Virus record (IMG/VR): IMGVR_UViG_2744054632_000003
From: a virus
Taxonomy: Duplodnaviria > Heunggongvirae > Uroviricota > Caudoviricetes
DNA: 56,004 nucleotides
Direction: 5' to 3' (one strand)
Under the pieces are notes generated by a model. It had not been told where the DNA came from. It worked only from the letters and a program-made list of their open reading frames with translations, and did no database searches. Shown piece by piece: positions 9,290-35,325 of the stretch; position 1 is the stretch's first letter, and each line of letters begins with the position of its first letter. The position numbers and the translations under genes are program-made.

Positions 9290-9349
9290 TCGTCATGCTC
9301 CATAAACGATAAAACCGCCCGGAGGCGGTTTCACATAAAACGTTTTTCA

Positions 9350-17602: not shown

Positions 17603-18379
17603 TTACGCCAGTTGTACAGACACGAACTCATCAGGATCAGCCAGCAGCATCAGCGGTGCTGACTGAATCATGGTGAACTCACGCGCCGGATCGCCGGTGG
17701 TCACCCAGTTTTTCGGGTAACGGGCAGAGGCGTTAATGCCTTCGCGCTGTGCGTCCGCATCCTGAATGCAGCCATAGGTGCGCAGACCGCGTGCCTGAGT
17801 GTTCCCCAGCACCATCGTGTTGTCCGGCAGGAAGTTCTTTTTGACGCCGTTTTCCACGTACTGTCCGGAATACACGACGATGGCCACATCGCCATACATC
17901 CCCTTGTAGGACACCGCTTTGCCCAGGTCTTTCACCGCTGTCTCCAGCTCGGAATGAGAGCCGCGACGAGTATCCAGCTTCTCCTTGACGGCTTTGAAGG
18001 AACGGAACAGCGCCCAGCCTTTCGGATCAAACACGATGATATTCACCACTCCGCTGGCGTTCAGCGCGTAGGCTTCGATATCGTCGGTCGGGTCATACGT
18101 GGACTTGTCACGCTTGCTCCACTCCGTGCCGCCGGACTGCGTGATGTTGTTGGCCGCACTGCGGCCCATATCCACCTCAACCGGATCGAAAGCTTCACCG
18201 GTCATGGTGTATTTGCCCTTAAGCACGGCAGAAACTGCCTGCATCTCTTCGACCTGGGCAATGGCCAGCTCTTCGTCACGCATGTTCTGCATAATGATGC
18301 GACGGCGGCGGTAAGCCGGGTCCGCCAGATTCTGCGGATCTTCATCCGGCAGGCGACGCAGGGTCATCTGCGGATTCAC
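17603..18379 (-). pseudogene. E: major capsid protein E, C-terminal ~260 codons, separated from its N-terminal part by the island
   Basis: VNPQMTLRRLPDEDPQNLADPAYRRRRIIMQNMRDEEL...EFVSVQLA matches lambda E residues ~83-341; frame has a stop immediately upstream. Confidence 0.9.
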
Positions 18380-18520
18380 CTCATGCTTCGGCTACATGAG
18401 TCAAATATGAAAGGATCTGAATGATTTTTAATGAAATAAATGGCTCTCTCTATCAAAATACAGCTAAAAAGCAATACACGTAGCAATACAGCGCTTCGCA
18501 AAGGTATGTCACTATATCTA

Positions 18521-19486
18521 CTAGTGCCAACCAGAATACGAATATCTTTGCTTTGCTTCTTCTGGGCTCATACCCACTAGTAAAGATACTAATTCAAAGT
18601 CAGGTTGTGGAATTGGAATCAATGCAGCCAAATATGCTGGCTTATTGAGAACAATTGTTGATAATCTAGCTTTATTCACCTTAGATAACTCAATATTACT
18701 TTCCGCTACCTTCGGGAATTCCATAATAAATGAATCAATTTCCCTTATGAGATAATCGATCAACGCCACTATACTTTCTGTCAAATCAATATATTTTGAC
18801 AACTCACTAGCATCAATTTCTTTCTTTATTTCATCCAATTTAATTTCAAACACTGGCTTGTCTTTACTGGCAATATTAGACAAACGTTTCTTTAAATCTG
18901 AATCAAGCTGATTCCTGACAATTAAACTTTTCAAAACAAAATTATAATTAAACAAAAAAGCATCAATTCGAGCAATATTCCTCCATGAGTTTCCAATTTC
19001 TTCATCTGACGGCATAATAAGTTCATGTTTTAGTATCTTGTACTTAATAAAAAAAACAAACCTCTCAAATAGAGTTTTATTAGCTGTGGGTATCTTTTTT
19101 ATAAATGAAAGACGGCTAATATCGAAATTCACCTCCCCGGCGTTAAATAAAAGTTCATTTATTGCCAGCGCTCTAAATATTGGATTTCTAGATCTCAAAC
19201 CAATATAACTACTTTTAATTGCCACAAGTGTATTTATCATCTGAAAAGAAACCATCATAAGCGTATTAGCAGAATTAAATTTCTCCGTTTCTATTTTAAT
19301 CTTCTCCTGCCTATTATTGATACAATAAGCAGTTAAGCCTCCCATAAGCGCCGATAAAAAAGATAATGCAATAGGGAATACATAATCTTTTGTATAATCA
19401 ACATCTGCTTTCAACATTAGTATTGCTTTAGCAATCAAAACTGCATCAGGGGTCATGTTAGAGCCGTCATTAAAAATTAAACACAA
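18521..19486 (-). CDS. AT-rich membrane-associated protein of unknown function (island cargo; candidate defence gene)
   Basis: Ile/Lys/Asn-rich 321-aa ORF with N-terminal hydrophobic segments; low GC versus flanks; sits at island end next to attL. Confidence 0.5.
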   Translation of the reverse strand: MCLIFNDGSNMTPDAVLIAKAILMLKADVDYTKDYVFPIALSFLSALMGGLTAYCINNRQEKIKIETEKFNSANTLMMVSFQMINTLVAIKSSYIGLRSRNPIFRALAINELLFNAGEVNFDISRLSFIKKIPTANKTLFERFVFFIKYKILKHELIMPSDEEIGNSWRNIARIDAFLFNYNFVLKSLIVRNQLDSDLKKRLSNIASKDKPVFEIKLDEIKKEIDASELSKYIDLTESIVALIDYLIREIDSFIMEFPKVAESNIELSKVNKARLSTIVLNKPAYLAALIPIPQPDFELVSLLVGMSPEEAKQRYSYSGWH

Positions 19487-20149: not shown

Positions 20150-20330
20150 AACAAAATCAGAGAAAGGAAACGGCAGAGGCCAAAAAGCCCGTTTTCAGCG
20201 CCAGTCATTTCCTTTCTTTTCAGGGGGGATTTTAAATAAAAACATAAAGTTACGGCGAAGAAGAACGGAAACGCCTTAAACCGGAAAATTTCCATAAATA
20301 GAGAAAAACTGCGCGCCTGACGCCCCGTAA
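20150..20330. other. island cos site: cosB-like region and divergent cosN
   Basis: About 85 percent identical and colinear with prophage cos region 34950-35130; at the cosN position island has GCCTGACGCCCC where the prophage has AGGTCGCCGCCC. Confidence 0.65.
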
Positions 20331-20381
20331 CGTTCTGGATCGCCGGAAAGGACCCGCCAGCCAGAGCGGGCCCTAATTTCA

Positions 20382-20765
20382 TCAACCAATCAGCTTATAG
20401 CGACCATCCCGTGCATTGCGGCGTACACGCTCAATCTTGAGGCATAGCGCCGCATCTGGCTTTTTTGGGACAGGTACGCGGCAATATTCAGAAGCGCGAG
20501 GAATATTATTTATCCAGTCGATCACTTCACTTAAATACCAGGCCTTACGCCCTTCCGTAACCTGCACACGCTCCGGGAACTCTCCACTAGCCTCAAGGTT
20601 TAGCAGTGTACGACGACTCAGGGTTGTAATTTCCATCACCTGATTCATATCAACAAGGCGCTCGCTTAAACACATTTTGTCAGCGATAGCTTTTAATTCC
20701 TCTACAGCTGGATTCGGGTACATCATTTCGGCAATTGGCTTAAGGTCATTGTAATCATTCTGCAT
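20382..20765 (-). CDS. AlpA-like HTH protein adjacent to island cos (candidate packaging-redirection or regulatory protein)
   Basis: LSRRTLLNLEASGEFPERVQVTEGRKAWYLSEVIDWI resembles the AlpA/excisionase HTH fold; gene ends immediately at the island cos. Confidence 0.5.
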   Translation of the reverse strand: MQNDYNDLKPIAEMMYPNPAVEELKAIADKMCLSERLVDMNQVMEITTLSRRTLLNLEASGEFPERVQVTEGRKAWYLSEVIDWINNIPRASEYCRVPVPKKPDAALCLKIERVRRNARDGRYKLIG

Positions 20766-20776
20766 TGTATCCCCCT

Positions 20777-21118
20777 TTACACACGAGCCAGCGGCTGAAC
20801 AGAAATACCTGAGCCAACAAACGCTGCAACCTTTACTGACAGTTCTTTAACAGACTCAGGCCAGTTCAGAGCATCAACATTTAAGACACCTGTCTTATAG
20901 ACCTGAGCCTGTGTTTTTTTCGCGGTGTCGATTTGTACAGCGGAAACATAAACCGCTTTACCTACGCTCGAACCATCCCATACCACCAGTGCACCTGTTG
21001 CATCTTCCTGCATCAGTGGCGTAAATGCAGGAATTACCCCTTTATTAGCTGAAAATATCCCCAGCGTAGTCACCAGTGCTTCAGTGCCAGCCATGAGTTC
21101 AGTGTAATGAGTAGCCAT
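20777..21118 (-). CDS. head decoration protein D homologue (island-encoded)
   Basis: TPLMQEDATGALVVWDGSSVGKAVYVSAVQ...VYKTGVLNVDALNWPES aligns with lambda [32 protein letters not shown]...[17 protein letters not shown]. Confidence 0.7.
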   Translation of the reverse strand: MATHYTELMAGTEALVTTLGIFSANKGVIPAFTPLMQEDATGALVVWDGSSVGKAVYVSAVQIDTAKKTQAQVYKTGVLNVDALNWPESVKELSVKVAAFVGSGISVQPLARV

Positions 21119-21127
21119 TGCTCCCCC

Positions 21128-22168
21128 TTAGCCAATGCGAACGGTAACAAAACGATTGATGCGGGCCGGTATTGGCTGTGGTGCTGAATGTGTCTGCACA
21201 TATTCAATAGCCGGATCACCAGGCACAATATAGTTTTTCGGTGCAAGTTCGGCTTTAGTCAGCCCCATTCGGATTAGCTCCGGATCCTGAATACCGCCAT
21301 AGGCGACAATCCCCTGAAGAGCCGTATTGCCAAGCACCATCAAATCAGGATCAAGGAAATGTTTTTCAGTTCCGTCCTCGTCGGTATAACGCCCGCTGTA
21401 AACAACAATCGCAACATCGCCCATATATCCTTTAAAACTCACCGAATCACCAAGGTCTTTAAGGGCCGTTTCCAGTTCGGAATTAGAACCACGACGGGTA
21501 TCCAGAGCCTCTTTTATCGCTCTGAATGAACGGTATTTCTTCCATACATTACCGCCCATAATGATGATATTAGTGACGCCCTCACTAAATTCTGCGTAGC
21601 TCTCAATATCATCATTTGGATCAAAAGTTTCTTTATCCTTACCTGACCACTCAGTACCGCCAGACTGAGTGATGATATTTTGTGGTTTAATATTCCAGTC
21701 CAGCTCATAACGTTCAATACCATCGCCCTCAATGATATTTTTCCCCGTTGTGATTGCCTGAACGGCAAGCCATTCAATACGTGCACGAATAGCTTTAGCT
21801 TGATTTACAATCGCCTGTTTAACTTTAATATTACGCGCCCCAAAAGCATTGTATTGCTCAGGTGATACACCAGCAGGGCGCACAGCTAACTTATTTGGAT
21901 CAATGCTGCTTTTCGGCTTCATATAGCCTGGACGAATTGTTTTTGATTCGTACCCTTCGTCACGTGAAACTTTACTACCCACCATAGGAGAACAAAACGC
22001 TGCAATTGGGATATTTGGATCGTCGATTGTATCAAGAATAATATCGCGCGATCCAAACATTACCGAGCGAGTAAAAAACAAACTGGTAAACAACGCATTT
22101 AGTTGTTTTTGTACATCTACAGCATTAACCACCTGTACAAGCTGGGTAGGCGAATATAAATCAACCAT
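21128..22168 (-). CDS. major capsid protein E homologue (island-encoded, divergent)
   Basis: ITQSGGTEWSGKDKETFDPNDDIESYAEF...RSFRAIKEALDTRRGSNSELETALKDLG...VAIVVYSG colinear with lambda E; start taken at MVDLYSPTQLVQ with AAGAGG 6 nt upstream. Confidence 0.8.
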   Translation of the reverse strand: MVDLYSPTQLVQVVNAVDVQKQLNALFTSLFFTRSVMFGSRDIILDTIDDPNIPIAAFCSPMVGSKVSRDEGYESKTIRPGYMKPKSSIDPNKLAVRPAGVSPEQYNAFGARNIKVKQAIVNQAKAIRARIEWLAVQAITTGKNIIEGDGIERYELDWNIKPQNIITQSGGTEWSGKDKETFDPNDDIESYAEFSEGVTNIIIMGGNVWKKYRSFRAIKEALDTRRGSNSELETALKDLGDSVSFKGYMGDVAIVVYSGRYTDEDGTEKHFLDPDLMVLGNTALQGIVAYGGIQDPELIRMGLTKAELAPKNYIVPGDPAIEYVQTHSAPQPIPARINRFVTVRIG

Positions 22169-22385
22169 ACGCATCCTCTTTGCATTCATTAAAAATAATT
22201 GTGGATATATGCTATCACCGATATTTGTCATGCGAACACATGCAACCGAGTGCAATGTTGTATAAAGTTTTGGGGTGACAACTTCAGTGCGAACAATTAG
22301 TGTTAATATATTCACTCCCTTTGGTCGGGATTTATGTAGCATGCCGGAAAATTTATTTTTTCCGGCCTTTTTTTATTGGCAATAT

Positions 22386-22835
22386 TTAAAATGGGATATC
22401 ATCTCCCCATTGCTCATTATCTCCCACTGGTGGCTGGCTTCCTTGCTGATCTGCCTGTTGTTTTGCTCTGTTCAGTGCGTCAGTAGCCTGCCCCTGTTGG
22501 CCTTTTTTGCCGCCCGGTCGCACCGATCGCGCACTGATTACGCTGTCTGCGATAACCTGCCAGCCCTGCCGCGTTTCGCCGTTCTGTCCAGTCCACTGGC
22601 TCATCTGCATGTTACCCGCCACGCTCAGGAGTTCGCATTTGTGATGCTTTGCCAGCGCGTCGGCTTGTCTGCCAAACGCCAGGACAGATAACCACATCGT
22701 CGCCTGACCGTCATCCGACTGACTGCAAGGCAGTGATACCGCCATACGCGCCAGCGTCATGGGGGTGCCCTTGCTGGTCTGTTTTGTCTGCGGGTCGTCC
22801 ACCAACCGCCCGTAAACTGATATTTGCGCCGTCAT
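22386..22835 (-). CDS. single-stranded DNA-binding protein-like
   Basis: OB-fold-like N-terminus and Gly/Gln-rich tail ending in acidic DDIPF, the SSB C-terminal signature. Confidence 0.65.
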   Translation of the reverse strand: MTAQISVYGRLVDDPQTKQTSKGTPMTLARMAVSLPCSQSDDGQATMWLSVLAFGRQADALAKHHKCELLSVAGNMQMSQWTGQNGETRQGWQVIADSVISARSVRPGGKKGQQGQATDALNRAKQQADQQGSQPPVGDNEQWGDDIPF

Positions 22836-23128: not shown

Positions 23129-23351
23129 CTGTTCACCTTTTGATATTTTCTCTTTTAATTCATAATGTTAATGGGTGAACAGTTTCACAAAAACTATTCA
23201 CCAACTGTTCACCACTGTTCACCCTTGAAGCTCAATAAACAATCAAAAAGGTGAACAGTGAATAGTTTGGTGAACAGTTCATAAATAACTGTTCACCCTA
23301 TAATACACTGATATAAAAGATATTTATGACAGGGTGAACAGTGGTGAACAG
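23129..23351. repeat. iteron cluster, probable island replication origin
   Basis: At least 10 copies of GGTGAACAG or its complement CTGTTCACC in both orientations in an AT-rich stretch just downstream of the primase-helicase gene. Confidence 0.7.
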
Positions 23352-23364
23352 TTATTCCATAAGT

Positions 23365-25185
23365 TTAATTTTTGCTATCGTCATTAGTGACCGATACACA
23401 TGATGGCATCCAGTCCTCTGATTCCTCCGTCAGTGTCACGTTTGAACGCAAACCGTGCTTCGTTTTCCGTTTCATATACTCCCTGCCATATTCCGCCATT
23501 GCCCCCGGCATATCTTTACCGAAGCGCGTCAGTGTTACAGGTTTACCAAACCCATGTGCCCTCATATAAGCCAGATAGGCATGATAGAGATACCTGCGTG
23601 GGCTGAATGGCACAATTTCAGCATTACCCACTAATAGGCCATCACACATTACCGATGCCATGAGATAGCCGCAGAAGTCCACCAGCGAATCCCCCTCTCG
23701 CTTTATCGCCAGTGCTTCTTCAGATTTCTGCTGCTCATATAACAGGCGTCTGGCTTCGTCCTGATCAGCAAACCGTGTAAGCAGATGACGAATCACTACC
23801 GCCAGCTCACCTTCTATTTTTTCCGCCAGCATCGAATCGCGTTCGTTCTCCGGTACAACTTCCGAAAAATTGAATATCACCCGACGACGTGAGATCCCCC
23901 CGCTGCGGTCACTGAATGACATGGCGTTATTGTTAACCGCCAGTACTACTGCCGGAATACGCGTTGAATAGGGGGCTTTGTGTTTCGGGTCAATTGCCAC
24001 CTTGTCACCGCCTGTAATGGCCTTAATCCCTGCCCCATCACCAGCGTAGCGGGTCATATCCGGCATGATAATCAGCGAAAAGCCAACCACTAACGCACGT
24101 TCCCTTGCATCTTCCAGCGCCTTCATGCTTGCTGATACTGTATTAGCCTTACCCGCCAGCATGGTGCAAATCTCCGCCATCACACTTTTACCACTTCCCC
24201 CCGGCCCTGTTACCTCAATGAATAACTGCCAGTCGTACCGGTTCGCCAGCACCATGAATAATGCCGCCAGTACGCGATCTGCCTTGCGGTCATTCTCAGC
24301 CACCGAACGGCGCAACCACTTCCAGAAATTCGGCGCATGTGTTGCCAGCGTTTCCCCCTCTGCTGGTGGGCTGAAAGGTAATTCACTGGCAATTAACAAC
24401 CAGTCGTTTTTGTTATGCTCCCGAAAATTACCAGTTCTGGTATCAAATACCCCGTTACTGAATCCAATCAGGTTACGGGCAGTATTCCCCATTACAGGCA
24501 AACTTAACTTCATGGTATCTACCGCCGATTTAATGGCGTTCTGCGAATAGCTGATCTCCGCATCAATGAAAATCTGCGCCATAGCACGCTGTAACTCTTT
24601 ATCCTGAACCGGCTCCCATACAACGCCGTTGTAATGATGAACGGTGTCAGAGTCGGCATTGATTGCCAGTTCGCCGCCGTAATGTGCAAGGAGAACTTCA
24701 CCGCGCTGGCTGGCCCCCATCTGATTCAACGCCAAAGATGAAGCACGCTCGTCATTTTTGCGCTCTGCCTTCTTCACTGGCAGTTCAATCACCAGACTTT
24801 CCCCATGCTCCGCTTCAGCTTTTAGGCCGACAAGGCGCGGAGTCCAGTCTTCAGGCTCTCGATCAACAAAGCTACGGTAACAACGTGCTTCCTTTACGCC
24901 TGCAATAGCAAGTAATGTCGCAACCTTCGTCAGACTTTTCTCTGCAATCTTTCCGGCACGATAAACACGCACATAATGACGGCCTTCATCGATAATTTGC
25001 ATATCATCCAGGTTTTCCAGTTGTTCCGTACCCAGAATGACTGGTGGTGTATCATCTGCTGCAATATGCTTACCTGCCCATTCATTCCATTCTTTTGCAT
25101 GGCTCCAGGCATCACTGCCAGCAAAAATGATGACTTCCGTCATTTTGTCGCGCGGTTGGTATTTTAAGTTCGGAGCACGTTTCAT
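23365..25185 (-). CDS. primase-helicase (P4 alpha / D5-like SF3 helicase family)
   Basis: Walker A GPGGSGKS, followed by conserved SF3 helicase-like region; GGAGGT 5 nt upstream of ATG at 25185. Confidence 0.8.
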   Translation of the reverse strand: MKRAPNLKYQPRDKMTEVIIFAGSDAWSHAKEWNEWAGKHIAADDTPPVILGTEQLENLDDMQIIDEGRHYVRVYRAGKIAEKSLTKVATLLAIAGVKEARCYRSFVDREPEDWTPRLVGLKAEAEHGESLVIELPVKKAERKNDERASSLALNQMGASQRGEVLLAHYGGELAINADSDTVHHYNGVVWEPVQDKELQRAMAQIFIDAEISYSQNAIKSAVDTMKLSLPVMGNTARNLIGFSNGVFDTRTGNFREHNKNDWLLIASELPFSPPAEGETLATHAPNFWKWLRRSVAENDRKADRVLAALFMVLANRYDWQLFIEVTGPGGSGKSVMAEICTMLAGKANTVSASMKALEDARERALVVGFSLIIMPDMTRYAGDGAGIKAITGGDKVAIDPKHKAPYSTRIPAVVLAVNNNAMSFSDRSGGISRRRVIFNFSEVVPENERDSMLAEKIEGELAVVIRHLLTRFADQDEARRLLYEQQKSEEALAIKREGDSLVDFCGYLMASVMCDGLLVGNAEIVPFSPRRYLYHAYLAYMRAHGFGKPVTLTRFGKDMPGAMAEYGREYMKRKTKHGLRSNVTLTEESEDWMPSCVSVTNDDSKN

Positions 25186-26417: not shown

Positions 26418-27101
26418 ATGACTCCAACTCCTGACGATGCTGTATTCACTGCATCAAACATTATAAATTTCTTCGTGGCACTCGGGACTTGCACAGCAGT
26501 GTTAGTTGCATTAATTGCTAAAAAGCAATCATCTTTTGAATCAACATTTTCTCTCATGTTATCTCAACATAACAATGCTCTAAATGATCTTAGAAAAAAA
26601 TCAAATTACTCAGAGTTAATTAATAAAATGATGAATGGATTGGTTTCTTTAAAAGACACTAATACACTGATGCACAATCATGATGCTGTTTTTGGAAGCT
26701 ACTTCAGAATATTATATCATCTATTGAAGTTCATTGATGAAAATGCTGGATACCATCCCTTTGATCTAGATCGTAAAAAAACCTATACAAGCCTTGTCCG
26801 TGCACATCTAGATAATGAAATAACGTATTTACTTGCAATAAACTGTGCACATGCTAACAGTGAAAATCAATATCATTTTTATAAAACATTGATTGAGCGC
26901 TATGCCATGTTAGAACATTTAATCTTGGATAAATCAACGCTATTGGACTATACCCCTCCAGATTTAAATGAATATCAAAAAGATTTGCGCGTAGCAACAA
27001 TAGTGGTTACCGATGATATAAAAACTATTTTTAACGAGATTGCAACAGTATATTATAAGAGCGCATTTGGAAAAAACCCTGATTTAAAAAATTTCCTGTA
27101 A
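26418..27101 (+). CDS. AT-rich membrane-anchored protein of unknown function (island cargo; candidate defence gene)
   Basis: N-terminal TM helix IINFFVALGTCTAVLVALIA; AT-rich codons; co-oriented with RHH gene. Confidence 0.45.
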   Translation: MTPTPDDAVFTASNIINFFVALGTCTAVLVALIAKKQSSFESTFSLMLSQHNNALNDLRKKSNYSELINKMMNGLVSLKDTNTLMHNHDAVFGSYFRILYHLLKFIDENAGYHPFDLDRKKTYTSLVRAHLDNEITYLLAINCAHANSENQYHFYKTLIERYAMLEHLILDKSTLLDYTPPDLNEYQKDLRVATIVVTDDIKTIFNEIATVYYKSAFGKNPDLKNFL

Positions 27102-27127: not shown

Positions 27128-27358
27128 TTACCATTCACCTCTTATCCAAGCTTGAATCTCAGAGAGTCTATAAGCCACCGCCGTAGATCCGATTTTGATT
27201 CGCTTGGGGAATTTCCCCTCCTTTTCAAGCTTCCAGCGTGTGCTGTTCGCAAGAGTGGTTAGCTCCCGACATTCTTTCTCACGGATCATTCGGTCAATGT
27301 TAGGAATGTACTCCAGACCCTTTTTATCAACAATTGCCATTTTTTTCATGTTAACCAA
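27128..27358 (-). CDS. alpA: AlpA family transcriptional regulator / excisionase-like
   Basis: Small HTH protein immediately downstream of integrase; LEYIPNIDRMIREKECRELTTLANSTRWKLEKEGKFP. Confidence 0.7.
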   Translation of the reverse strand: MVNMKKMAIVDKKGLEYIPNIDRMIREKECRELTTLANSTRWKLEKEGKFPKRIKIGSTAVAYRLSEIQAWIRGEW

Positions 27359-28586
27359 CCTTTTGTTTGAGGATTGTCACTTTTGAATCAGCACCTGCGA
27401 TGCTATTGAGATATGTAGTCCAGAGTTCCAGAGCATCCAGTTTTTTAGCCATAAACTTACTCCGGTTGTAAACACCTGCCACGCCAGGTAGCGCATGGCC
27501 TAACAGTTGTTCTACTACATAAAATTCAACACCGAGATCACTTAGATGAGTAGATAGCGTTCTTCTAAGGTCGTGTAGTGACCATTGTTTTTCATGGCCC
27601 AAACGTTTACCGATTTTCCCCCCAATCTTGCTTACGCTTTCTCTAATTCGCAGACTTCCCAGCACATAACCAGTATGTTTTGTCTCTTCGTGAACATCCG
27701 TTACCCACTGTCGTAGAATTTCAGGTACTGGTCTGACGATTTCAACACCAGTTTTTGAGTGATCTTTTGGTACAGTCCAAACCCAACTTTCGAGATCCCA
27801 TTCGCTCCATTCTGATAATCGGGCTTCACTCATTCGACATCCAAATACTGTACAAAGCACAAACATTTTTCGCGTGTATTCAGACATTAGTTTTAAATCA
27901 GGCTCGACAAAAATTGCCTTCCAGAGCTGGCCGAGTTCGGCTTCATCCAGAACCCGATCCCGCTTACCTGCAATCTGCCCCACATCACTCATGCGCAAAT
28001 CCTTTAAAGCATCACACGTCGCGTACTGGCGTACCCGACAAAAACGAAGAGCTAATTTAGTGTCAGAAAAAACATACGCCGCCATAACTGGTGCATTACG
28101 TTTAATTCGGTCAAAACAGTCCAGCCATTCATATAGGTGAGTGTCATTTACGGGCAAATGACCGATATAGGGAAAGATATGCTTTCGAAATCTGCCAAGC
28201 GTTACAGCATGAGTTTTACGACGCACCTTACAGTAATTTTCATACCAGTAATTTAGTGCATCCTCCACTGTGACCGGCTTTAAGCGTTCTTCAGCCTGAA
28301 TCTTAATCTGGATACGCGGATCACGTTTGTCAGCCAACCAACCACGGCACTCGTCGCGCTTTTCCCTTGCCTGTTTGAGTGACATATCAGGATATTTACC
28401 CAACGTTAGCCAGACCGGAGCAGCCCGGCCACCTGCTAACCTGTAGAAGAAAACAAAGCTCACAGCCCCTTTAGTACTCACACGAATAGAAAGCCCCTTT
28501 CCATCAGCAATGGTGATCTGCTTTTCTCTGGGTTTCCCCAGATATCCTTTAAGCGCTTTGTCGCTCAGTTTGTTCTCGCCAGCCAT
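27351..28586 (-). CDS. int: tyrosine integrase (P4-type)
   Basis: Conserved HDLRRT and LLGH motifs of tyrosine recombinases; start taken at MAGENKL; adjacent to attR. Confidence 0.85.
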   Translation of the reverse strand: MAGENKLSDKALKGYLGKPREKQITIADGKGLSIRVSTKGAVSFVFFYRLAGGRAAPVWLTLGKYPDMSLKQAREKRDECRGWLADKRDPRIQIKIQAEERLKPVTVEDALNYWYENYCKVRRKTHAVTLGRFRKHIFPYIGHLPVNDTHLYEWLDCFDRIKRNAPVMAAYVFSDTKLALRFCRVRQYATCDALKDLRMSDVGQIAGKRDRVLDEAELGQLWKAIFVEPDLKLMSEYTRKMFVLCTVFGCRMSEARLSEWSEWDLESWVWTVPKDHSKTGVEIVRPVPEILRQWVTDVHEETKHTGYVLGSLRIRESVSKIGGKIGKRLGHEKQWSLHDLRRTLSTHLSDLGVEFYVVEQLLGHALPGVAGVYNRSKFMAKKLDALELWTTYLNSIAGADSKVTILKQKVG

Positions 28587-28748
28587 TTTTAGCCCCAAAA
28601 AGCAATACAAGCTGCAATACAGAGATGATTGCAACACACAGATAACGAGGAAAATTCAGTGAAAGCGCCAGATAAACTTATTCTTTATTATCAAAAGATT
28701 AAGTGTAAAAACCAGCAACTACACGAAAGCCTCAGAAAGCCATGCTAA

Positions 28749-28994
28749 GTGCTTCGGCTTGACATATCCCGGCGTAAATTCAGAGGTGGAGCCGCCACGG
28801 GAGCGGATAACCTCACCGGAAACAATCGGCGAAACGTACAGCGCCATGTTTACCAGCCCCGGAATTTGTGAGAGATAGACTTTCTCCGTGGTGAAGGGAT
28901 AGCTCTCACGGAAAAAGAGACGCAGAAACAGCGGATCAAACTTAAATTTCTGCTCATTTGCCGCCAGCAGCTGGGCGGTTGTGTACATCGACAT
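28749..28994 (-). pseudogene. E: major capsid protein E, N-terminal 82 codons, interrupted by island insertion
   Basis: MSMYTTAQLLAANEQKFKFDPLFLRLFFRESYPFTTEKVYLSQIPGLVNMALYVSPIVSGEVIRSRGGSTSEFTPGYVKPKH then reads LAWLSEAFV-stop into island DNA. Confidence 0.9.
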
Positions 28995-29049: not shown

Positions 29050-29382
29050 TTAAACGATGCTGATTGCCGTTCCGGCAAACGCGGTCCGTTTTTTCGTCTC
29101 GTCGCTGGCAGCCTCCGGCCAGAGCACATCCTCATAACGGAACGTGCCGGACTTGTAGAACGTCAGCGTGGTGCTGGTCTGGTCAGCAGCAACAGCAAGA
29201 ATGCCAACGGCAGCACCGTCGGTGGTGCCATCCCACGCAACCAGCTTACGGGTGGAGGTGTCCAGCATCAGCGGGGTCATTGCAGGCGCTTTCGCACTCA
29301 ATCCGCCTGGCGCGGTTGCGGTATGAGCCGGGTCACTGTTGCCCAGCGGCTGGTAATGGGTAAAGGTTTCTTTGCTCGTCAT
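29050..29382 (-). CDS. D: head decoration protein D
   Basis: [43 protein letters not shown] matches lambda D. Confidence 0.9.
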
Positions 29383-34417: not shown

Positions 34418-34937
34418 TCAGCAACCCCGGTATCAGTTCATCCAGCGCGGCTGCTTTGTTCATGGCTTTGATGATATCCCGTTTCAGGAAATCAACATGT
34501 CGGTTTTCCAGTTCCGGAAAACGCCGCTGCACCGACAGGGGGATCCCGTCGAGAATACTGGCAATTTCACCTGCGATACGCGACAGCACGAAAGTACAGA
34601 ATGCGGTTTCCACCACTTCAGCGGAGTCTCTGGCATTTTTCAGCTCCTGTGCGTCGGCCTGCGCACGCGTAAGTCGATGGCGTTCGTACTCAATAGTCCC
34701 TGGCTGGAGATCTGTCTCGCTGGCCTGCAGCAGTTCTTCAACCTCCCGGCGCAGCTTTTCGTTCTCAATTTCAGCATCCCTTTCGGCATACCATTTTATG
34801 ACGGCGGCAGAGTCATAAAGCACCTCATTACCCTTGCCACCGCCTCGCAGAACGGGCATTCCCTGTTCCTGCCAGTTCTGAATGGTACGGATACTCGCAC
34901 CGAAAATGTCAGCCAGCTGCTTTTTGTTGACTTCCAT
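34392..34937 (-). CDS. nu1: terminase small subunit Nu1
   Basis: MEVNKKQLADIFGASIRTIQNWQEQGMPVLRGGGKGNEVLYD matches lambda Nu1. Confidence 0.95.
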
Positions 34938-34939
34938 TG

Positions 34940-35126
34940 CTCATTCCACGGACAAAAACAGAGAAAGGAAACGACAGAGGCCAAAAAGCTCGCTTTCAGC
35001 ACCTGTCGTTTCCTTTCTTTTCAGGGGGTGTTTTAAATAAAAACATTAGGTTACGGCGAAGAAGAACGGAAACACCTTAAACCGGAAAATTTTCATAAAT
35101 AGCGAAAACCCGCGAGGTCGCCGCCC
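34940..35126. other. prophage cos site (cosB and cosN)
   Basis: Reverse complement matches the recalled lambda left end GGGCGGCGACCTCGCGGGTTTTCGCTATTTATGAAAATTTTCCGGTTTAAGGCG; 12-nt cohesive-end sequence at 35115-35126. Confidence 0.85.
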
Positions 35127-35325
35127 CGTAACCTGTCGGATCGCCGGAAAGGACCCGCAAAATGATAATAATTATCATCTACATGTCACAACGTGCATCT
35201 ACGCCATCAAACCACGTCAAATAATCAATTATGACGCAGGTATCGTATTAATTGATCTGCATCAACTTAACGTAAAAACAACTTCAGACAATACAAATCA
35301 GCGACACTGAATACGGGGCAACCTC

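Follow-up and report, generated by a model that had tools for sequence, protein, structure and literature searches.

Homologues of the lambda shell and decoration proteins in a satellite embedded in the capsid gene of a lambda-like prophage

The 56,004-nt virus record IMGVR_UViG_2744054632_000003 (the window, meaning the whole stretch of DNA analysed) holds a lambda-like prophage whose major capsid gene, E, is interrupted by a satellite island that encodes its own homologues of capsid shell protein E and decoration protein D. We read this island as a capE-type, helper-embedded phage-inducible chromosomal island (PICI) bearing a late/packaging module, in which E and D would act as a cognate shell–cement pair in full-size heads; the account as a whole we put at about even odds (probability roughly 0.5). 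That E and D have a structural role in particles is predicted tentatively, at slightly under even odds. Both this type of element and its capsid genes have been published before, the island being almost certainly a cargo variant of Eco567.11capE (hereafter 11capE), an 11-kb satellite of E. coli NRG857c described as a helper-embedded PICI (Tommasini, Mageeney & Williams 2023, PMC10111431). What is added here is a satellite-only clade with E-then-D gene order, and the purifying selection on it.

Shell and decoration proteins of the island

The pair is encoded by two adjacent genes:

21128–22168, minus strand: island major capsid protein E, gpE homologue, 346 amino acids (aa) (Pfam PF03864, 3.7e-41)
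20777–21118, minus strand: island decoration (cement) protein D, gpD/SHP homologue, 113 aa (Pfam PF02924, 4.5e-15)

E is preceded by an AAGAGGA Shine–Dalgarno motif 5 nt before its ATG, and D starts 9 nt downstream of E. Together with a helix-turn-helix (HTH) gene, the two form an E-D-HTH module in which each gene has a strong Shine–Dalgarno and spacers between genes are 9–11 nt. Positions 22169–22342 are just an in-frame upstream open reading frame (ORF) extension.

Island E matches the Phage_cap_E family (PF03864) at 141.7 bits (cut-off 22.9) across profile positions 4–327 of 329, and aligns with lambda gpE end to end at 42% identity (349 columns, E-value 6e-87). Among solved structures its top match is 3BQW (2.4e-121), with lambda gpE (7VI9) at 5.9e-77, and an AlphaFold model superimposes with template-modelling (TM) scores of 0.87 on 3BQW and 0.80–0.84 on lambda gpE. 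The 3BQW chain is 100% identical to E of EcCICFT073, the model E. coli PICI, in which a capsid homologue (c1499) and a head-decoration homologue (c1500) have been described and whose packaged DNA, with lambda as the phage, was all phage-sized (Fillol-Salom et al. 2018, PMC6092414). E and D of that element are 54% and 55% identical to their island counterparts. By these measures island E is a lambda-E-type HK97-fold major capsid protein, with a predicted shell-forming role.

Island D matches HDPD (PF02924) at 56.3 bits (cut-off 29.1), and is 38% identical to lambda gpD and likewise to the D of the resident prophage. Its best structural match is the phage 21 protein SHP (1TD0, 4.7e-16), with lambda gpD at 1e-11; the AlphaFold model gives TM 0.67–0.79 to SHP and gpD, at a mean predicted local distance difference test (pLDDT) score of only 68, which is moderate confidence. 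D is thus a gpD/SHP-type decoration protein, and its homology and co-retention with E suggest trimer binding at three-fold sites on the expanded shell. A sequence-only reading of this DNA had called 21128–22168 colinear with lambda E yet divergent, had aligned 20777–21118 with lambda D, and had proposed profile searches and structure prediction against both as the check; all of this is borne out, HK97-type and D-like folds being matched. The range it noted also took in 22386–22835, which is not a capsid gene but encodes a single-stranded DNA-binding protein (SSB; Pfam SSB 8.7e-15).

Identity to lambda is spread unevenly along E, at 14–33% over lambda residues 1–150 (N-arm, E-loop and spine helix) and 40–80% over residues 151–330. 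In lambda, the N-terminal stretch of gpD joins the E-loop of one gpE subunit and the N-arm of the following one in a sheet (review PMC5701804). Given these contacts, the D-touching parts of E have drifted most and D has drifted alongside; in satellite D proteins the N-terminus is shorter and the C-terminus is extended by a conserved QPLAR(V) sequence. Over codons ~150–270, island E resembles lambda E (60–80% amino-acid identity in certain windows of 30 residues) more than EcCICFT073 E (~47–53%), with synonymous sites saturated all the same. This central similarity suggests that this lineage alone either exchanged sequence with a lambda-type E long ago or is under unusually strong constraint.

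Distribution and selection of the E–D pair

E homologues of Escherichia, Cedecea, Scandinavium, Serratia, Edwardsiella, Salmonella and Lelliottia, drawn from a large protein database, step down in identity from 99 through 86, 79, 75, 74, 71, 62 and 60 to 50%, after which there is a gap to at most 44%. The sole exception to this grouping, at least 50% versus at most 44%, is a lambda/island chimera. Across 50,697 phage records, identity peaks at 42.3% (E) and 40.2% (D). Eight contexts with E identity of 50% or above were inspected, and every one is a satellite carrying int, alpA, primase, E and then D:

E. coli, at cspD/clpS
EcCICFT073, at roxA/phoQ (CFT073 genome)
Serratia, at fis
Edwardsiella tarda, within the portal gene of a lambda-like prophage with D and E genes of its own (L011, 1–625 and 10908–11681)
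Lelliottia, at fis
a metagenome contig, at fis
Salmonella, inside the P2-like tail cluster of a prophage (L038, 1–2167 and 13183–17032)
11capE, in the helper E gene

The Edwardsiella tarda and Salmonella cases are two further helper-embedded satellites with the E–D pair. Below the identity gap, the first context inspected is a regular phage head operon (Nu1-A-W-portal-protease-D-E). All eight satellites carry E before D; lambda, the resident prophage and the inspected below-gap phage carry D before E. Judged from the eight contexts and from identity-based clustering, the E–D pair forms a clade that, in the data examined, is confined to satellites and is independent of integration site. Its presence at cspD/clpS, fis and roxA/phoQ, in a portal gene and in a tail cluster argues that the pair is not an adaptation to insertion in E. 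Within E. coli, the full-length lineage occurs in 395 of 5,426 complete genomes (~7%), and 173 of the 5,426 have the E::island junction.

Both genes are under constraint. The ratio of nonsynonymous to synonymous substitution rates (dN/dS) for island E is 0.06–0.09 within the lineage and 0.11–0.21 against EcCICFT073, a saturated comparison; D gives 0.07–0.16 and the HTH gene 0.01–0.17. Low values hold from a synonymous divergence (dS) of 0.07 up to saturation. Because this amounts to strong purifying selection, E and D are judged functional, and dN/dS excludes the idea that they are decaying relics. Island and helper genes share about 50% nucleotide identity; island E against helper E shows 38–66% per 40-codon segment, with a proportion of synonymous differences (pS) of 0.6–1.0 in every segment. 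A recent capture of helper genes was considered and is excluded by these saturated synonymous sites and by the lack of any phage closer than 42% (E) or 40% (D).

Some relatives carry more of the head pathway. A lambda-C-type S49 protease gene directly follows D in two of them (L012, 10409–11752; L039, 9418–10659), and a gene for a Nu1-type small terminase subunit (TerS) lies after cos in three (L006, 10990–11532; L004, 10943–11485; L039, 11530–12078). By gene content, these additions are a graded series toward satellites that would build their own heads.

The chimera mentioned above is a hybrid capsid gene at L040 2801–3829 (metagenome scaffold ERZ28600228 scaffold_2787, 4,432 bp), lambda-type to about nt 667 and island-type from about nt 651. 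The crossover falls in the sole 17-nt stretch exactly common to lambda E and island E; lambda-type portal-C-D genes lie upstream and island D-HTH genes downstream. It may be a real helper–satellite recombinant or an assembly chimera. No such hybrid was found in the 5,426 complete E. coli genomes, and nothing here is built on it.

Proposed role in full-size heads, and alternatives

The island tyrosine integrase has placed the element at E codons 79–82, co-oriented with the helper late operon. We propose that E and D would be made late, with the helper's antiterminated late transcript reading through while the island is embedded and the island's own operon serving otherwise; late read-through into the embedded island was proposed by Tommasini et al. 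(PMC10111431). The two proteins would then be assembled on the helper portal, scaffold/protease, terminase and tails into normal T=7-type heads, the shells being island-only or mixed with helper protein. The satellite would gain a supply of shell protein independent of helper E, which is delayed or interrupted, and about four copies (41.5 kb) would be packaged per head from the island cos. Simple laboratory transfer tests are expected to show no need for E and D, as was the case with EcCICFT073.

The main argument concerns D. To our knowledge, a decoration protein has no activity beyond binding the expanded shell lattice, with contacts from the E-loop and N-arm. A co-diverged D kept beside E in every lineage therefore points to island E in expanded, DNA-filled shells, and a structural role in particles is plausible for this lineage.

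The island cos site (20151–20357, minus strand, by alignment to the helper cos at 34930–35170) is ~90% identical to the helper cos in cosQ and cosB. Its 12-nt cosN end, GGGCGTCAGGCG (20314–20325), differs from the lambda-type helper end, GGGCGGCGACCT (35115–35126), at 5 positions, so that satellite and helper DNA ends would be non-complementary. This variant cosN occurs in 23 IMG/VR contigs and never before a phage Nu1-A. In 22 of the 23 it lies directly downstream of island-type D and/or HTH, with E present wherever the stretch reaches; the remaining contig (L019) begins too near cos to judge. 11capE has the same variant, while its helper retains the lambda cosN; the publication gives only a 258-bp, 90% cos similarity (PMC10111431).

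Four island copies amount to 41,464 bp, 85.5% of lambda, with three copies at 64% and five at 107%. Only the four-copy concatemer lies within the packaging range established for lambda, so packaging as about four copies per head is expected. Full-size heads are likewise expected, because E is colinear with gpE, because EcCICFT073 packaged at phage size and because only that concatemer fits.

Four points weigh against this account. It is an assumption that island E works together with the helper portal, Nu3 scaffold and C protease. Particles of 11capE/50icd were not recoverable (PMC10111431). Deleting c1499 or c1500 left both island transfer and lambda interference of EcCICFT073 unchanged (PMC6092414). 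Finally, if single-nucleotide deletions in the helper genes B and H (described below) are real, the island copy in this window cannot form particles with its own helper.

A more exclusive arrangement, with island E capsomers cemented by island D into a satellite-specific lattice on the helper portal, we regard as unlikely. Given the island's position in helper E, the first proheads formed after induction would consist of satellite shell protein alone, and the cosN GGGCGTCAGGCG would keep satellite and helper ends unpaired. If true, such a lattice with its own cosN would be an intermediate between whole-head stealers and capsid-forming PICIs (cf-PICIs), and altered shell stability or capacity might favour the 41.5-kb satellite concatemer over the helper genome.

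Tommasini et al. offered another role, 'a backup intact copy' by which island E replaces the interrupted helper E in the embedded state (PMC10111431). The island does both interrupt E and carry E, and late read-through could express the island copy before excision; even so, we hold this role to be rather improbable. The pair also sits at chromosomal sites, in a portal gene and in a tail cluster, where no helper E is interrupted, and only ~173 of the ~395 E. coli genomes with the lineage have the E::island junction. D would be unexplained, the helper D being intact. Moreover, satellite excision is efficient and restores E: 11capE excises precisely from 42–98% of replicated composites at 2–3 h (PMC10111431). 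This also speaks against the suggestion, made in the sequence-only reading, that insertion may force all capsids to use the island protein, as helper E is only delayed.

That reading had further proposed capsid resizing. Island E, alone or mixed, would bias assembly to small heads suited to the 10.4-kb island and exclude the helper genome. There are precedents: SaPIbov5 Ccm is a homologue of the helper capsid protein that redirects assembly to small capsids (PMC8569155), and the Pasteurella satellite PmCI172, possibly a second case, has a capsid homologue and small heads (PMC6092414). Like island E, Ccm is a satellite-encoded homologue of the helper major capsid protein in a cos-packaged satellite. 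A single 10.4-kb copy would suit a far smaller shell, and the most diverged parts of E (N-arm, E-loop and spine helix) set inter-capsomer geometry. However, Ccm alters capsid size and shape and blocks the phage, whereas the tested E. coli homologue (EcCICFT073) does neither: its DNA with lambda was all phage-sized, and loss of the E or D homologue brought no relief of interference (PMC6092414). Ccm also lacks an accompanying decoration protein and, apart from the common fold, has no sequence relationship to island E. Island E aligns colinearly with gpE without any extra domain, a lambda-type cos is kept and a normal lambda head has room for four copies. The T=7 lattice is where lambda-type D trimers are known, and Pfam and PHROG scans found no scaffold-like size determinant among the island proteins. 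Resizing is thus quite improbable.

A non-structural role receives similarly little credence from us. Here E and D would be kept out of transmissible particles and act by interference or as decoys, poisoning head assembly, titrating scaffold, portal or chaperonin, or masking or triggering capsid-sensing defence systems, of which the island's variable cargo might be an example. Satellites commonly interfere with helper morphogenesis, the module adjoins changing defence cargo (AbiC-like, TIR, DUF262/HEPN, Abi), and strong selection without a transfer phenotype fits a function outside packaging. Against this, the c1499 and c1500 deletions did not relieve lambda interference (PMC6092414), conservation spans the complete HK97 fold rather than one interaction surface, and a cognate D beside E in all eight satellite contexts is left unexplained. 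That E and D are functionless passengers, decaying or neutral leftovers of a captured helper late-gene block, has hardly any chance of being right, despite the lack of a deletion phenotype in EcCICFT073 (PMC6092414) and the known capture of helper late-gene clusters by satellites (PMC10111431): dN/dS is 0.06–0.16 at synonymous divergence up to saturation, frames are intact in hundreds of genomes of many genera, gene order is the reverse of lambda's with no phage source closer than 42%, and no functional phage copies were found that could fake the dN/dS signal by recombination.

Island, helper prophage and relatives

The other island features are as follows:

27351–28637, minus strand: tyrosine integrase (Pfam Arm-DNA-bind_3 and Phage_integrase)
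27128–27358, minus strand: AlpA regulator/excisionase (Pfam Phage_AlpA, 1.5e-15)
26418–27101, plus strand: putative AbiC-like abortive-infection protein, cargo slot 1 (Pfam putAbiC, 2.8e-16; weak PADLOC AbiC/AbiP matches)
23365–25185, minus strand: primase/helicase with D5_N, DUF5906 and Pox_D5 domains (domain matches; 99.8% identical to the 11capE primase)
23174–23357, no strand assigned: origin-like iterons GGTGAACAGT, 8 copies across both strands, just downstream of the primase gene
22386–22835, minus strand: island SSB
20382–20765, minus strand: AlpA-family winged-helix (HTH) protein, 127 aa (Phage_AlpA 7.6e-9; phrog_2790 1e-49; PDB 8C3T, AlpA, 2e-9)
18521–19486, minus strand: 321-aa accessory protein, low G+C, cargo slot 2 (phrog_21267 only)

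Genes run in the order integrase, AlpA, AbiC-like (plus strand), Icd-like, DUF4222, primase, iterons, phrog_1231, SSB, E, D, HTH, cos and the 321-aa gene. With int, alpA and pri all on the minus strand, iterons downstream of pri, a helper-type cos, and 10,366 bp free of lysis, tail, portal or terminase genes, the island has the make-up of a Gram-negative PICI; the iteron position agrees with that of ori in such elements (PMC6092414). Homologues of Nu1, A, W, B, C, FI and FII were not found inside the island by tblastn with all lambda head proteins, and besides E and D no lambda head or tail homologues were detected (tblastn, with Pfam and PHROG scans concurring). The island is therefore, as the sequence-only reading had it, a satellite that encodes shell and decoration homologues but lacks a portal, a protease and a terminase; nor does it contain connectors, and on these scans it is not a cf-PICI.

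The 127-aa HTH protein is the third product of the E-D-HTH module and is encoded directly upstream of cos. The Rpp feature of the EcCICFT073 subgroup was not found in the island: an Rpp-type packaging redirector beside cos was considered and set aside, as this protein is AlpA-like and has no Rpp structure match in a PDB search, the other small island ORFs not having been searched singly. The HTH protein has 15–25% identity with the three proteins encoded after D in EcCICFT073, and could be a functional analogue of Rpp. A promoter and terminator scan of the island gave counts not above those of shuffled sequence, and we claim no dedicated E promoter. A short repeat upstream of E, aligned to one near 25.4 kb (families D5 and D9), was dismissed as a coding-sequence coincidence.

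Two slots, one after alpA and one after cos, vary across the island family; in relatives the cargo there consists of TIR, DUF262+HEPN, Abi, DUF2971 or restriction-endonuclease genes. These look like the defence hotspots of P4-like satellites. In this island, E, D and the 321-aa cargo protein have zero PADLOC matches, and the 321-aa protein has no Pfam match.

The surrounding prophage lies on the minus strand, with Nu1, A, W, B, C, D, FI, FII, U, V, G, H, M, L, K, I and J in lambda order at 81–100% identity (tblastn with lambda proteins). G+C is ~58% in the window and falls to 35–50% over roughly 18–29 kb. Around the junctions are:

29050–29382, minus strand: helper D gene, intact (98.2% identity to lambda D)
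28750–28994, minus strand: helper E 5' fragment, codons 1–82 (tblastn, 100% identity to lambda E residues 1–82)
28750–28759, no strand assigned: left att core AGCCGAAGCA (on the minus strand)
18384–18393, no strand assigned: right att core, the identical 10 bp AGCCGAAGCA
17603–18393, minus strand: helper E 3' fragment, codons 80–341 (tblastn, 98.9% identity to lambda E residues 80–341)

The 10-bp repeat covers helper E codons K79–H82 and is present at both island junctions; the island length of 10,366 bp is measured core to core. Fusing the flanks in silico at this repeat restores a continuous 341-aa E with 99.1% identity to lambda E, in agreement with the earlier view that the resident prophage has its own D and an interrupted E. 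All island genes but one are co-oriented with the helper late genes.

The att core itself varies: it is AGCCGAAGCA here and AACCCAAGCA in 11capE (copies at L041 ~9331–9340 and ~20405–20414), differing at two synonymous positions in the helper Lys-Pro-Lys codons. Within each strain, both att copies are the same variant. The satellite attP core appears to follow the helper E allele.

Two helper genes have 1-nt deletions relative to lambda, each in a short homopolymer and each splitting the gene into two reading frames: the portal gene B (~31540, TTTT to TTT) and the tape-measure gene H (~13523, CCC to CC). E. coli EC-10, which has an identical island, has intact B sequence at that point, and H is annotated as a pseudogene also in the helpers of loci L005 and L006. 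Either the deletions are sequencing errors or the helper can no longer make heads or tails in this strain.

Insertion at E codons 79–82, co-orientation and an integrase 99.5% identical to that of 11capE (a pairwise identity) place the island in the capE group; restoration of E is in silico for this island, experimental excision being that of 11capE only. The two elements share the insertion point (a 10-bp identity block), orientation, gene order and variant cosN, with core nucleotide identity of 97.8–98.9%. At the protein level, identity is 99.5% for the integrase, 98.6% for AlpA, 99.8% for the primase, 96.6% for SSB, 99.4% for E, 99.1% for D and 100% for the HTH protein. They differ in cargo, AbiC-like and 321-aa genes here versus a 178-aa hypothetical gene and HEPN+DUF262 (the latter in slot 2) in 11capE. 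Helper-embedded elements have been counted at 201 in E and 290 in other late genes (PMC10111431).

EcCICFT073 has int, alpA, icd-like, DUF4222, primase, SSB and E then D in common with the island, and its pair belongs to the same clade. Unlike the island, it sits at a chromosomal site rather than in a prophage; its D precedes unrelated genes, including one for a Nu1-like protein taken as Rpp, where the island has the AlpA-like HTH gene; and its cos has a lambda-type cosN without a phage cosB, the reverse of the pattern here. To lambda gpE and gpD and to phage 21 SHP the island proteins are similar in fold, length and colinear alignment. They are set apart from lambda by 42% and 38% identity, by reversed gene order and by the diverged N-arm/E-loop/spine-helix third, in a satellite without portal, scaffold or terminase. 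cf-PICIs such as EcCIEDL933 likewise have an int-alpA-replication backbone and their own capsid protein; they encode a full head and packaging set (protease, portal, connectors, HNH, TerS and the large terminase subunit TerL) and steal tails only, whereas the island has shell and cement only.

As a discovery, the element adds little: helper-embedded PICIs in lambda E with their own capsid gene were published in 2023, and the E and D homologues of E. coli PICIs had been reported in 2018, along with knock-outs that showed no phenotype. What interest remains attaches to a strongly selected, satellite-only E–D module and an island-specific cosN. Paradoxically, a pair without a known phenotype is a satellite-only clade here, strongly constrained and with its own gene order, and is carried by ~7% of complete E. 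coli genomes as well as by many other Enterobacterales. Knowing its role would show whether a continuum joins head-stealing and head-building satellites, and would also be relevant to engineering lambda-based transducing particles.

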